Shown: piece by piece, positions 1 through 3,432 of the stretch
How positions within the stretch are numbered: the stretch's first letter is position 1
Layout: every line of letters starts with the position of its first letter
From: Escherichia phage DT571/2
Direction: 5' to 3' (one strand)
DNA: 3,432 nt
Sequence record: KU159289.1
Position numbers and translations under genes: made by a program
The notes under the pieces: model-generated
Database searches by the model: none
What the model was told of the DNA's origin: nothing
Seen by the model: only the letters and a program-made list of their open reading frames with translations

Positions 1-120
1 ATGGCACTTAAAACTAAAATTATTGTACAGCAGATTCTGAACATAGATGACACTACAACTACTGCTAGTAAGTATCCTAAATATACAGTAGTTTTAGGTA
101 ATTCTATTAGTTCTATTACT
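1..120 (+). other. N-terminal module (aa 1-40), putative virion attachment region of the fibre
   Basis: Non-repetitive, hydrophobic-rich segment MALKTKIIVQQILNIDDTTTTASKYPKYTVVLGNSISSIT that precedes the low-complexity shaft. In modular tail fibres the N-terminus is the conserved part that docks to the tail. The assignment is by position and analogy only. Confidence 0.4.
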
Positions 121-3100
121 GCTGGTGAATTAACTGCTGCTGTAGAGGCCTCTGCAGGATCCGCTGCTGCTGCTAGAGGTTCTGAAATAGCAGCTAAGGA
201 CTCTGAAAATAACGCTAAAGATTCAGAGATTCAGGCGGGTATTCATGCTGGTGCTTCCGAAGCTTCAGCAACTCAATCTGCTGCCTCTGCTACTGAGTCA
301 GAAAGACAGGCGGGTTTAGCCCAAAGCAGTGCAGATAATTCTGCAGCTTCTGCGCAAGAATCAGAGGGATTTAGAGACTCTGCAGAATTGGCAGCGCAGA
401 ATGCTGAACAAAGTCGTTTACTAGCTGAACAAGCTAAAACAGCTGCGCAACAAGCTCAAATAGCCGCAGAAGCTGCTAAGACTGGTGCTGAAACAGCTAA
501 AGATGGAGCTGATGCTGCTGCTACCACTGCTGGCGAACATGCTGCTGCTGCAAGGCAATCAGAACTAAACGCTAAGATTTCTGAAACTAATGCTGCTGGT
601 TCTGCTACTGAAGCCGGTGATAAAGCTATCGATGCTACTACTGAGGCAGATCGTGCTAAAGCTGAGGCAGATCGTGCAACTCAGATTGTTGATAGTAAAC
701 TTGATAAAGTAGATATTTCTGGTTTTATCAAAGTTTATAAGACTAAAGCAGAAGCTGATGCCGATGTTGTAAACCGTGTGCTAGACGAAAAGGTTCTAGT
801 CTGGAACCAAACTAACTCAAAATTTGGGTGGTACAAAGTAGCTGGAACTGCTGAGACTCCAGTATTAGAGTTAGTAGAAACAGAGCAAAAGTTAGTTTCT
901 GTTAATAACGTTCGTGCAGATGATGGGGGTAACGTACAGATCACCCTTCCTGGTGGTAACCCCTCTTTATGGCTGGGTGAAGTTACTTGGTTCCCTTATG
1001 ATAAAGATTCAGGTGTTGGCTACCCTGGTGTTCTTCCTGCTGATGGTCGTGAAGTTCTTCGTGCAGACTATCCAGATACTTGGGAGGCTATTGAGGCTGG
1101 CTTAATTCCTTCTGTACCAGAAGCTGAATGGCAAGCCGGTGCGTCTCTTTACTTCTCTACGGGTGATGGCTCTACAACCTTCCGTCTACCAGATATGATG
1201 CAAGGACAGGCATTCCGTGCACCAACTAAAGGCGAAGAAGATGCTGGCGTTATTAAAGATCAGATTCCTTATGTTGTGACAGTTAATGGTATCTCTCCAG
1301 ATGATATAACTGGTAACGTTGAAATTGATACCTCACTACAAGGTACTGTTAGTATTAATCAAGGCGGTACTGGTGCAACAACTAAAGAAGACGCCCGTAT
1401 AGCCCTCGAGTTATATAGTACTACGGAGGTTGATTCTGCTTTAGCAGATAAGGCTGATATTGCTACCACGTATACTAAGATGGAGGTTGATTCTGCTTTA
1501 GCAGATAAGGCTGATATTGCTACCACGTATACTAAGATGGAGGTTGATTCTGCTTTAGCAGATAAGGCTGATATTGCTACCACGTATACTAAGATGGAGG
1601 TTGATTCTGCTTTAGCAGACGCTAAAACTCAGTCAGATACTGATTACTTATTAAAAGCTAATAACCTTTCGGATTTGGCAGACCGTGCTGCCGCATGGCT
1701 TAACGTGCGACCCGTTGGTTCAACGCCGCTGGCTGGTGATCCTGTTGGCGACTACGATGCTGTTACTAAGCGTTGGGTAGAGAATAAGATTAACACCGGT
1801 ACAGTAGGGCCAACAATGAATGGTGTCATGAACTATGGGGTAGGTGACTTTCACCTGCGGGATAGTCGCGCATACATTCAGCCGTACGAGGTGGTGAGTG
1901 ATGGTCAGTTGTTGAATCGTGCTGACTGGCCCGAACTCTGGGCGTATGCGCAAATGCTATCGCCAATTAGTGACGCTACCTGGCTGGCTAACCCAAATCA
2001 GCGCGGCAAGTATTCTACTGGTGACGGCACAACGACCTTCCGAGTGCCAGACCGTAATGGTGTTCAGCCTGGGTCAATATTCGGCTTGTTCTGCCGGGGG
2101 GACGGCGGGCAAAGTGGCAACGATGGGTATATCTACGAATCAGGAGCACCTAACATCACAGGCCGCGTCGAATTACACGGCGGCGGGTCCGCAAGTATTA
2201 TCAACGGTGAAAGTGGCGCGTTCCATGGGTCTGGTGGCGCGGATTCGCAATATCGGACGCCAAGCAACCTAACTGTTAGTAACGGCGCGGTCTCCTACGG
2301 CATCATTAACCTGGACGCCTCGAGGGTCAGCGCGATCTATGGTCGGACCGTAACGGAGTTGCGTCCAAATAACTTCATGGGTGTGTGGGTTATTCGAGCG
2401 TCAGGCGGGTTCGTGGCGGCGAATACGTCTTGGAGTGTGATCAATGGTGATGCGACACGTCCAGCTGACGGCACAATTGCTCAAGGTGGTAACATATTCT
2501 CATTGTACAAGATTAGTGGCGCCAATGAGGCTGAAGCTAGTTTCTGTGCCCGTGCCGATATCGGCGGTAACTATTCTGCTCGTATTTCCGTAACGAACAG
2601 TACCACACAAAGAAGCGCGAATCTGGATTTTGACGAAACAGGTAAACTAACTATACCGAATAGTATAGTTGTGAACTCGGTGAACTCCGATTTTGACGGT
2701 GTATGTTGGGCGGATTCCGCCGATAAAGTACGCTGGCGTATGGGGATTAACGACGCTTCGGGCAATTTTAAGTTGCAATCATATGACGCGTCGGGCGCGT
2801 ACCGAGATACCGTCGTGGAGATCCCCGGAGCGGGAACAGGCGGAGTAGTGTGGGCCCGTGATATAACCATTCGCCCGACTACCGACGGTCCGGTGAAGTC
2901 TTTCGTTCTACACAACGCAAAAGATTCAGTCCCGGCTGGTAATTTCCGCACGATGTGGGATTCGGTTAATATCAATAGTAACCAGATCTATAAATATTTT
3001 GAGAAGGGAAACGGCACTGGCATTACAATCAACTGGCCTTCATCTGGTGGTGTTCTTGCCTTGCAAGGCACATCGGGGCGGGACTTTAAGAAAGATATTG

Positions 3101-3432
3101 TCAATGCAGACGTTACAGAAGCGGTTGCACGTATTGAACAAATGCGCATGGTGAACTACGTGTATAAGGACGATGTGCAGGAGCGCGTCCGCTTCGGCAT
3201 AATTGCCGAGGAGGCTGAAGCGATTGCACCTCAATACATCAAACATCGAGAAGAGACGTACGATGTGGAGGTGGACCCAGAGACTAACGCTATTATCGGT
3301 GGTAAGACCCGCGACAGGCCGTCGGTGGATGTAAACCCGATCGTTATGGATTTGATGGGTTGTGTGCAGTATCTCAATAAGCAAATCGAGGATTTGAAGG
3401 CAGAGATAGCCGCGCTGAAGGCAGCGAAATAA
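1..3432 (+). CDS. Phage long (L-shaped-like) tail fibre protein, 1,143 aa, with C-terminal intramolecular chaperone / autoproteolysis domain
   Basis: Single ORF spanning the whole window, ATG at 1-3 and TAA at 3430-3432, no in-frame stops. The translation shows an Ala/Ser/Glu-rich shaft, two tail-collar-like motifs (STGDGSTTFRLPD, STGDGTTTFRVPD), the L-S-D-L-A-D-R-A-A-A-W-L-N linker motif common in tail fibres, and a C-terminal chaperone-like domain ending in a heptad helix (QIEDLKAEIAALKAAK). The N-terminus (KYPKYTVVLGNSISSIT) resembles, from memory, that of phage T5 L-shaped tail fibre pb1; this is not verifiable here, so no gene symbol is assigned. The true start cannot be confirmed because there is no upstream sequence. 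Confidence 0.9.
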   Translation: MALKTKIIVQQILNIDDTTTTASKYPKYTVVLGNSISSITAGELTAAVEASAGSAAAARGSEIAAKDSENNAKDSEIQAGIHAGASEASATQSAASATESERQAGLAQSSADNSAASAQESEGFRDSAELAAQNAEQSRLLAEQAKTAAQQAQIAAEAAKTGAETAKDGADAAATTAGEHAAAARQSELNAKISETNAAGSATEAGDKAIDATTEADRAKAEADRATQIVDSKLDKVDISGFIKVYKTKAEADADVVNRVLDEKVLVWNQTNSKFGWYKVAGTAETPVLELVETEQKLVSVNNVRADDGGNVQITLPGGNPSLWLGEVTWFPYDKDSGVGYPGVLPADGREVLRADYPDTWEAIEAGLIPSVPEAEWQAGASLYFSTGDGSTTFRLPDMMQGQAFRAPTKGEEDAGVIKDQIPYVVTVNGISPDDITGNVEIDTSLQGTVSINQGGTGATTKEDARIALELYSTTEVDSALADKADIATTYTKMEVDSALADKADIATTYTKMEVDSALADKADIATTYTKMEVDSALADAKTQSDTDYLLKANNLSDLADRAAAWLNVRPVGSTPLAGDPVGDYDAVTKRWVENKINTGTVGPTMNGVMNYGVGDFHLRDSRAYIQPYEVVSDGQLLNRADWPELWAYAQMLSPISDATWLANPNQRGKYSTGDGTTTFRVPDRNGVQPGSIFGLFCRGDGGQSGNDGYIYESGAPNITGRVELHGGGSASIINGESGAFHGSGGADSQYRTPSNLTVSNGAVSYGIINLDASRVSAIYGRTVTELRPNNFMGVWVIRASGGFVAANTSWSVINGDATRPADGTIAQGGNIFSLYKISGANEAEASFCARADIGGNYSARISVTNSTTQRSANLDFDETGKLTIPNSIVVNSVNSDFDGVCWADSADKVRWRMGINDASGNFKLQSYDASGAYRDTVVEIPGAGTGGVVWARDITIRPTTDGPVKSFVLHNAKDSVPAGNFRTMWDSVNINSNQIYKYFEKGNGTGITINWPSSGGVLALQGTSGRDFKKDIVNADVTEAVARIEQMRMVNYVYKDDVQERVRFGIIAEEAEAIAPQYIKHREETYDVEVDPETNAIIGGKTRDRPSVDVNPIVMDLMGCVQYLNKQIEDLKAEIAALKAAK
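121..684 (+). other. Ala/Ser/Glu/Thr/Gln-rich low-complexity quasi-periodic shaft region (aa 41-228)
   Basis: Strong compositional bias visible in the translation (e.g. SAASATESERQAGLAQSSADNSAASAQESE, AEQAKTAAQQAQIAAEAAKTGAETAKDGADAAATTAGEHAAAA). It contains 21-nt (7-aa) periodic sub-repeats, e.g. gctaaggactctgaa at 193-207 vs gctaaagattcagag at 214-228, and the 16-nt exact direct repeat ctgaggcagatcgtgc at 641-656 and 662-677. Alanine is encoded almost entirely by GCT. Confidence 0.7.
964..1224 (+). other. Tail-collar-like domain 1 (aa ~322-408)
   Basis: The segment GVLPADGREVLRADYPDTWEAIEAG...YFSTGDGSTTFRLPDMMQGQAF fits the phage tail collar pattern as I recall it (c-d-G-x-x-L-x-x-x-x-Y-P-x-L-f-x-x-i-G ... 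G-d-G-x-t-t-F-x-L-P-D-l-r-G). Boundaries are approximate. Confidence 0.55.
1426..1619 (+). repeat. In-frame tandem direct repeat, 57-bp unit x 3 perfect copies + 23-bp partial fourth copy, encoding the 19-aa unit EVDSALADKADIATTYTKM
   Basis: Identical 57-nt units gaggttgattctgctttagcagataaggctgatattgctaccacgtatactaagatg at 1426-1482, 1483-1539 and 1540-1596, then a partial copy gaggttgattctgctttagcaga at 1597-1619. The sequence just upstream (YSTT, nt 1414-1425) looks like a degenerate edge of an older copy. Confidence 0.95.
1813..2070 (+). other. Tail-collar-like domain 2 (aa ~605-690)
   Basis: VVSDGQLLNRADWPELWAYAQ...KYSTGDGTTTFRVPDRNGVQPG repeats the same pattern as domain 1, but in the GC-rich codon style. 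Boundaries are approximate. Confidence 0.55.
2071..3075 (+). other. Gly/Ser/Asn-rich distal module, putative receptor-binding (host-range) domain (aa ~691-1025)
   Basis: Gly-rich beta-type composition (GDGGQSGNDGYIYESGAPNITGRVELHGGGSASIINGESGAFHGSGG ...) located immediately upstream of the predicted chaperone cleavage site. That position is where the distal receptor-binding domain sits in chaperone-dependent fibres. I recognise no catalytic motif. Confidence 0.45.
3076..3429 (+). other. C-terminal intramolecular chaperone / autoproteolytic domain (peptidase S74-like; aa 1026-1143), predicted to be released after cleavage following Ser1025
   Basis: Ser1025 (tcg, 3073-3075) and Lys1030 (aag, 3088-3090) have the S-x4-K spacing of the Ser/Lys dyad of endosialidase-type chaperone domains. 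They are followed by DIVNADVTEAVARIEQMRMVNYVYKDD, an acidic/hydrophobic core and a terminal heptad helix LNKQIEDLKAEIAALKAAK. Recognised from memory of the family, not from an HMM search. Confidence 0.65.

Follow-up and report, generated by a model that had tools for sequence, protein, structure and literature searches.

The lateral tail fibre gene of Escherichia phage DT571/2 in sequence record KU159289.1 fills the 3,432-nucleotide (nt) stretch of DNA analysed here, called the window throughout, and carries two tail-collar-like signatures that differ in codon style. How did two such collars come to stand in one fibre, and what does each of them do there? The explanation that best accounts for the whole of the evidence, and which we consider probable, is that the window holds two collar units in a gene made by fusing the two fibre genes ltfA and ltfB, that the second unit flanks an exchangeable receptor-binding cassette, and that the first is the core of a module on which a second fibre protein docks.

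Origin of the window gene

A single long open reading frame (ORF) fills the window, and its product of 1143 amino acids (aa) is 100% identical over 1143 aa to the UniRef entry "Fused tail fiber protein, Escherichia phage DT571/2" (P0004). This ltf gene comes from a laboratory-selected in-frame deletion, in which ltfA (nt 1 to ~1833) runs into the 3' part of ltfB. Golomidova et al. (2016, Viruses 8:26, section 3.8, PMC4728585) describe the mutant phage, DT571/2-ABF, which was obtained when an ltfB-opal phage was put under laboratory selection for the ability to grow on E. coli HS3-104; it carries an in-frame ltfA-ltfB deletion, 71916-74004, and its 19-aa repeat has gained one unit. The features that document this origin are as follows.

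1..3432, + strand: fused LtfA-LtfB lateral tail fibre of phage DT571/2-ABF (only long ORF, 100% database identity)
1425..1619, + strand: perfect 57-nt tandem repeat, 3.4 copies, 100% identical, 19-aa unit VDSALADKADIATTYTKME (Tandem Repeats Finder; 57-nt offset against wild-type ltfA)
1828..1838, + strand: crossover tract, 11 nt common to ltfA and ltfB (aa 610-613; flanked by parental mismatches)

The window and wild-type DT571/2 ltfA share 99.9% identity over window nt 1-1562; past nt 1562 there is an offset of 57 nt (one extra repeat unit), after which the similarity to ltfA is only 87%. Nt 1717-3432 are 98.9% identical to ltfB, with every mismatch lying upstream of nt 1828. In a position-by-position comparison, the last mismatch to ltfB falls at nt 1827 and the first mismatch to ltfA in the region at nt 1839, and the DNA from nt ~1833 to 3432 is 100% ltfB. 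On the sequence record, the junction at nt 1828-1838 falls at positions 71916/74004; it fits the published deletion coordinates exactly and coincides with the first residue of the second collar. Around the crossover, ltfA and ltfB are only ~75% identical, with a mismatch every few bases, and just 11 nt of perfect identity were used; the fusion arose by homeologous recombination and not by recombination between long identical repeats. In the resulting protein the LtfB N-terminus (about 235 residues) is deleted and the distal module is joined in frame to LtfA.

At the protein level, the junction is given as LtfA 663 / LtfB 288 in the same paper (PMC4728585), which approximates the first residue at which the parental proteins differ (T660 in the window). 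Because the parental proteins are identical over aa ~575-659, the protein-level junction is ambiguous, and the published residues are thus reconciled with the nucleotide coordinates. The tandem repeat of the window is one unit longer than that of wild-type ltfA, and the authors speculated that the extra unit makes up for the loss of LtfB (PMC4728585). The single substitution relative to wild-type DT571/2 ltfA within nt 1-1562 is at nt 824 (aa 275), in the gp14-like module discussed below; the residue is Phe (TTT) in the window and Tyr in DT57C LtfA (SKYGWYK), and no mention of it was found in the available portion of Golomidova et al. (2016).

Two diverged collar units in one fibre

970..1209, + strand: collar domain 1, core, aa 324-403 (~20-aa helical insertion relative to the Pfam profile)
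1210..1335, + strand: extension of unit 1, aa 404-445, ending SPDDITGNVEI (hhalign; homologous to aa 690-728)
1837..2067, + strand: collar domain 2, core, aa 613-689 (DNA entirely from ltfB)
2068..2184, + strand: extension of unit 2, aa 690-728, ending APNITGRVEL (hhalign local alignment)

The two collar signatures that a first-pass annotation of the window had reported were exact in motif and position: ADGREVLRADYPDTW...GDGSTTFRLPD, running to aa 398, and SDGQLLNRADWPELW...GDGTTTFRVPD at aa 633-684. The divergence of the two segments can be quantified directly, BLASTP aligning copy 1 with copy 2 at 22/54 identities (E 9e-11). Non-redundant homologue alignments of copy 1 (A1, n=27) and copy 2 (A2, n=22) matched each other in a profile-profile comparison (probability 99.4%, E 1.6e-21, 71 columns), and local hhalign comparison of larger alignments (42 and 108 sequences) matched aa 325-445 with aa 614-728 over 113 columns (probability 100%, E 2e-39). 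The repeated segments were located correctly by the first-pass annotation and are longer than it had supposed: the unit comprises ~120 aa, beginning WLGEVTWF / GVGDFHL and stopping at (S/A)P(D/N)ITGxVE(I/L), and a ~20-residue helical insertion relative to the canonical collar profile is common to both units.

Taken alone, the shared motif would suit a recent internal duplication or even a chance recurrence, readings to which we assign a negligible probability. Aligned codons of the two copies are 55% identical, their third positions only 38%, and the longest common word is 8 nt, in line with the earlier view that no recent duplication had occurred; moreover, the copies fall into separate families, each of them conserved in phages that are unrelated, and the strength of the hhalign match speaks against chance. 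As these alignments show, the two units are anciently diverged paralogous domains of the Collar family (PF07484).

Membership of PF07484 is solid at the family level and marginal for the window's own copies. The whole window protein reaches 24.9 bits via copy 1, against a gathering threshold of 24, whereas copies 1 and 2 in isolation score 22.4 and 19.2 bits, both under that threshold. PF07484 was matched at E<0.01 by 21/27 copy-1 homologues and 20/22 copy-2 homologues, it is the sole Pfam family matched by both homologue families, and homologues from both pass its threshold (40.8, 31.4, 31.2, 29.8 and 28.4 bits). The window copies align to positions 38-54 only of the 57-position profile; close homologues of both copies cover positions 1-35 and 38-56, two stretches split by the ~20-aa insertion, and the window copies align full-length to homologues that cover both halves.

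The same family covers gp12 residues 342-397 and gp37 residues 814-860 in T4. Neither of these proteins nor 8kec was retrieved by profile searches of PDB sequences with A1, A2 and A3, which returned only DT57C LtfA and SU10 gp12, and Foldseek comparison of model 1 with the PDB gave nothing significant. Single-chain AlphaFold2 (AF2) prediction gave a confident collar 1 core. In the cryo-electron microscopy (cryo-EM) papers on DT57C and SU10 only the fibre N-termini were modelled, hence there is no structure of either collar. A reading of collar 1 as a "headless" collar, with a closing strand QIPYVVTVN equivalent to RPNNFMGVWVIRA beyond the collar 2 head, was rejected, as the hhalign alignment is colinear through ITGxVE and no secondary alignment was returned.

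Codon style and the frequency of two-collar fibres

The contrast in codon style is borne by the third positions. Copy 1 has a third-position GC content (GC3) of 0.26-0.28, against 0.53-0.54 for copy 2, as the first-pass description of an AT-rich and a GC-rich copy implied; the gap in overall GC is modest (0.48-0.50 versus 0.54), and "AT-rich" overstates the case for copy 1 as a whole. Wild-type LtfA (P0006) has both collars, at aa 312-415 and aa 581-684, and both are in the AT-rich third-position style; its collar 2 shares 89% protein and 72.5% DNA identity with that of LtfB, with GC3 of 0.31 versus 0.54. The contrast within the window exists because the laboratory deletion put LtfB's collar 2 in place of LtfA's, and since wild-type LtfA has a collar 2 of its own, the fusion exchanged one collar for another and added none. 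It had been supposed that one collar arrived with the distal module, which holds insofar as the distal DNA is that of ltfB; the event was a laboratory deletion that exchanged a collar and not a natural capture that added one. The DNA of copy 1 is ltfA's own and follows the T5-like genome in its AT-rich third positions; that of copy 2 is from ltfB and has a GC-rich style common to ltfB and Dhillonvirus fibres. The GC-rich ltfB segment, collar 2 included, is 86-87% identical in DNA to Dhillonvirus lateral fibre genes, such as those of Envy, Sloth, JLBYU37 and bob.

There is little unusual in a fibre with two collars, and most of the case is already accounted for. When a combined collar profile was run exhaustively with HMMER, 2,843 representative proteins matched at E<=0.001; at least two matched stretches, and up to 12 in one protein, were present in 41 of the best 150 of these proteins, a ranking by summed score that favours multi-copy proteins. 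Two large proteins, P0124 (3019 aa) with 5 collar-type stretches and P0181 (4832 aa) with 12, indicate that heavy reiteration is possible in one polypeptide. LAMP-like fibres hold both collar types, at aa 318-427 and 601-704, a spacing near that of LtfA. Additionally, the natural T5-like Salmonella phage SP3 (MG387042.1; L010 7068-10319 = L021) has one 1083-aa lateral fibre with both collar types, no ltfB, and dut directly downstream of the fibre gene; its fibre aligns colinearly to LtfA at 63% identity and to the window protein at 65%, and is a natural counterpart of the window architecture.

Collar 2 as the proposed flank of a binding cassette

2113..2325, + strand: hypervariable patch, aa ~705-775, candidate receptor-binding loops of a Gp12-like receptor-binding domain 1 (RBD1) (alignment)
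2338..2475, + strand: conserved block closing the variable patch, aa ~780-825, RPNNFMGVWVIRASGGFVAANTSWSVINGDAT (alignment with PGT2, Envy and wild-type LtfA)

At the protein level, LtfB, wild-type LtfA, Dhillonvirus Envy and the podovirus PGT2 share 93-100% identity across the linker and collar 2 (aa 560-650). Identity within the hypervariable patch beyond them is 0.07-0.27 to wild-type LtfA and 0.33-0.47 to PGT2, against 0.63-1.0 in the flanks. In tblastn comparisons, Wifcevirus, Kuravirus, phiKT-like and T5-like fibres have aa 600 to ~885 in common with the window as one unit, while aa ~890-1132 match other phages and are exchanged separately. In DT57C LtfA, the specificity determinant that was mapped by experiment matches the phiKT fibre, and the phiKT fibre aligns solely to the aa 600-~885 segment of the window. 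HHpred has likened residues 236-422 of EP335 gp13 to the gp12 tip (PMC8217332), and in T4 gp12 and gp37 the collar directly precedes the receptor-binding part; the link of the window collar to gp12 is a weak match.

These observations suggest that an exchangeable Gp12-like binding cassette is built on collar 2, which would be its conserved scaffold and the flank at which it recombines. The cassette would be ordered as collar 2, the hypervariable patch at aa ~705-775 and the conserved closing block, followed by a T5-like tip and an S74 chaperone. Each collar of the fibre may be pictured as a conserved globular node on a trimeric shaft, on the proximal side of a variability boundary, and the conservation of collar 2 would supply the homology for cassette exchange between phages, as it presumably did for the fusion.

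PGT2 (L022 211-2973) is an Autographiviridae podovirus isolated on E. coli 3-104, a host on which growth depends on LtfB, and it shares a block with window nt 1678-1950. That PGT2 shares the variable patch of LtfB by way of this common host was considered and found unsupported, with only 33-47% identity there.

Collar 1 and the proposed docking site of LtfB

691..1335, + strand: phiEco32 gp14 / SU10 gp12-like module, aa 231-445, the proposed LtfB attachment region, which holds collar unit 1 (phmmer to 7z47_D residues 247-472, E 2.5e-45)
934..969, + strand: motif VQITLPGGNPSL, aa 312-323, nearly invariant and specific to collar-1-type units (family alignment)

A relationship of LtfA 223-471 to phiEco32 gp14, with the region proposed as the LtfB attachment site, is reported by Golomidova et al. 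(2016; PMC4728585); genetic work shows that LtfA is required as the attachment site of LtfB and that it is unstable without LtfB. Collar 1 by itself matches SU10 gp12 (7z47_D) residues 318-431 at E 1.7e-41. Positions T4, P6, G8, N9, P10, S11 and L12 of VQITLPGGNPSL are invariant in 27 non-redundant members, Kuravirus-like ones included. Across 73 T5-like LtfA proteins, mean identity is 0.95 over aa 312-323 and 0.86 over aa 324-403, compared with 0.76 for the tail-attachment N-terminus; aa 312-403 form the most conserved stretch of the proximal half of LtfA, and conservation falls to 0.28-0.21 from aa 441, just past collar unit 1. DNA similarity to >300 phage records stops at this place too, at nt ~1272-1275.

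This profile bears on the earlier suggestion that copy 1 is vestigial, a decaying collar left by an older module capture. Copy 1 does lack a head or variable region, and its own sequence is marginal against Pfam; it is nonetheless the conservation peak of the proximal half, exceeding even the tail-attachment region in identity, it is retained in T5-like, ~85-kb and Kuravirus-like phages, and its core is predicted with confidence by AF2. The suggestion was accordingly set aside as very improbable.

The collar-1 module keeps close company with LtfB-type N-termini. At 17/18 viral loci with a collar-1 relative, an LtfB-type N-terminus is encoded 1-2.5 kb downstream, and these N-termini are 63-100% identical over 45-60 aa; the 18 loci span T5-like phages (~110-120 kb), phages of ~82-90 kb and Kuravirus-like phages of ~77 kb. 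Within the phage collection, a full-length collar-1 unit is present in 242 records and an LtfB N-terminus in 236, with near-identical genus counts. The co-occurrence with an LtfB/gp15-type N-terminus holds for the module in nature, the partner having been deleted in the window's own phage.

Combined, these results point to a structural node as the most likely role of collar 1, one that provides the LtfB docking site or contributes to it. In such a scheme the core of the gp14-like module would be collar 1 together with the invariant GNPSLWLGE motif, an LtfB-type N-terminus would dock there, and a branched fibre would result. The site is left unoccupied in the ABF fusion because the LtfB N-terminus is deleted, and collar 1 of the fused protein would then be an empty socket that still serves as a structural node.

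How much of the docking falls to the collar itself is a further question, and two observations weigh against assigning it there: co-occurrence cannot tell the collar from its conserved flanks, and SP3 retains collar 1 though it is without ltfB. For these two reasons, direct docking of LtfB on collar 1 is advanced as a hypothesis to which we give rather less than an even chance. A broader form of it is tentative at best, namely that collar unit 1 with GNPSLWLGE is a socket for the 45-residue LtfB/gp15-type N-terminus, left empty in the window's fusion, and that Collar is a portable fibre-on-fibre branching node across T5-like siphoviruses, ~85-kb phages and Kuravirus podoviruses.

The same two observations favour an alternative in which both collars are purely structural trimer nodes (providing register and rigidity) and LtfB docks beside collar 1, on aa 231-311 or 404-470 of the gp14-like module. 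It is further favoured by the conservation of aa 231-311 (43-49%) and aa 416-470 (37-50%) across the three phage groups, and by the fact that the fused ABF fibre works with the site unoccupied. The conservation of collar 1 with GNPSLWLGE is, however, the highest both in T5-like phages (0.86-0.95) and across groups (47-62%), which is beyond the need of a spacer and parallels that of the LtfB N-terminus (93-98%). Docking beside the collar is a possible account, and a somewhat doubtful one.

The first-pass annotation had also raised the possibility of two receptor or contact surfaces along the fibre. This idea survives for collar 2, as the base of a Gp12-like receptor-binding cassette; collar 1 is without a variable head and more probably belongs to fibre-fibre assembly. 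A second host-binding surface at collar 1, directed for example at a conserved lipopolysaccharide (LPS)-core sugar and giving two receptor contacts per fibre, would agree with the place of the Collar domain in the receptor-binding region of T4 gp12 and gp37 and with the homology of unit 1 to the first ~120 aa of an RBD1-type unit, and an invariant ligand would suit its high conservation. Unit 1 stops short, however, of a hypervariable patch like that seen after collar 2; ABF grows on HS3-104 and not on HS1/2, host range tracking the distal modules; specificity swaps map to the C-terminal divergent region; and EP335 gp12, a collar-1 homologue, bound 0 tested strains when tagged with green fluorescent protein (PMC8217332). 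Such a surface is thus improbable, and the LtfB docking module is the reading of collar 1 that we retain.

Proximal shaft, joints and terminal chaperone

1..240, + strand: T5-type N-terminal tail-attachment region, aa 1-80 (match to DT57C LtfA chain 8hqz_d)
3076..3237, + strand: Peptidase_S74 intramolecular chaperone, aa 1026-1079 (Pfam PF13884, E 3.4e-10, 40.5 bits, cut-off 22)

The N-terminal region of LtfA was reported by Golomidova et al. (2016) to share 63% identity with T5 Ltf, and in the DT57C cryo-EM work the modelled N-terminal part of LtfA is inserted into the LtfC ring. It leads into a long low-complexity shaft (nt 130-690, aa ~45-230), which is rich in Ala, Ser, Glu and Gln, has a very low GC3 of 0.13-0.23, contains a degenerate 21-nt repeat at nt 628-681 and weakly matches the N-terminal region of T7 gp17 (7boz, E 0.0019). 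At nt 1360-1425 and 1660-1700 stand the short motifs INQGGTGATTKEDARIALELYS and ANNLSDLADRAAAWLNVRP; we take them to resemble the joint motifs that recur at module boundaries of many phage fibres. ANNLSDLADRAAAWLNVRP starts the block common to ltfA, ltfB, Envy and PGT2.

Implications

The gene is a published laboratory mutant, its domain is curated and multi-collar fibres are common, so that the discovery value of the locus is small. The fusion, the collar family and the existence of multi-collar fibres are already known, and the published ltfA-ltfB deletion accounts for the break in composition. What is modestly new is that the DNA crossover has been placed exactly, at the border of collar 2, that the two units extend over ~120 aa and share an insertion, that the collar-1 module co-occurs almost one to one with LtfB-type N-termini, and that both collars lie proximal to variability boundaries. 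More generally, when codon style changes abruptly inside a fibre gene, the cause need not be an ancient capture; paralogous genes of one phage may have recombined very recently, even in the laboratory. The branched-fibre model gains quantitative support from the near one-to-one pairing of collar-1 modules with LtfB-type N-termini, and the collar-2 block, at 93-100% protein identity in siphoviruses and podoviruses, is a natural splice point for engineering receptor-binding cassettes.

Comparison with known systems

The closest known system is the DT571/2-ABF fused fibre itself, which has the same 1143-aa sequence, the same deletion coordinates and the extra 19-aa repeat, with no sequence difference; collar domains are not described in the part of Golomidova et al. 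(2016) drawn on here. As in T4 gp12 and gp37, collar 2 of the window sits just before a part proposed to bind receptors.

T-shaped dual-RBD fibres, which combine a Gp12-like RBD1, a T5-like RBD2 and a chaperone, have been described for the Tequintavirus IrisVonRoten, Gordonclarkvirinae and Wifcevirus and are of LtfB type (Humolli et al. 2025, PLoS Biol, PMC11990801). Window aa 600-1143 are homologous to Wifcevirus, Kuravirus SU10 and Dhillonvirus fibres, and the protein has homology to Gordonclarkvirinae fibres as well; among the Wifcevirus matches to the distal window, Bas101 reaches 96% coverage at 41% identity, and WFH and WFC are 60-63% identical over aa 600-836. The distal part of the window splits into two independently exchanged segments and has a terminal S74 chaperone. 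It differs from the T-shaped fibres in that the module is covalently fused to the proximal fibre, rather than being a separate protein that docks by its N-terminus.

The Kuravirus pairs phiEco32 gp14/gp15, SU10 gp12/gp13 and EP335 gp12/gp13 resemble the LtfA-LtfB pair in carrying collar 1 in the gp14/gp12-like module and in the LtfB N-terminus being 67-76% identical to the gp15/gp13-like N-terminus. Kuravirus collar 1 differs from that of the window by an extra 11-residue insertion and is without the GDGxTTF motif. In most Kuraviruses, moreover, the two collars stand on two separate proteins, whereas LAMP-like fibres have both in one, as LtfA does.

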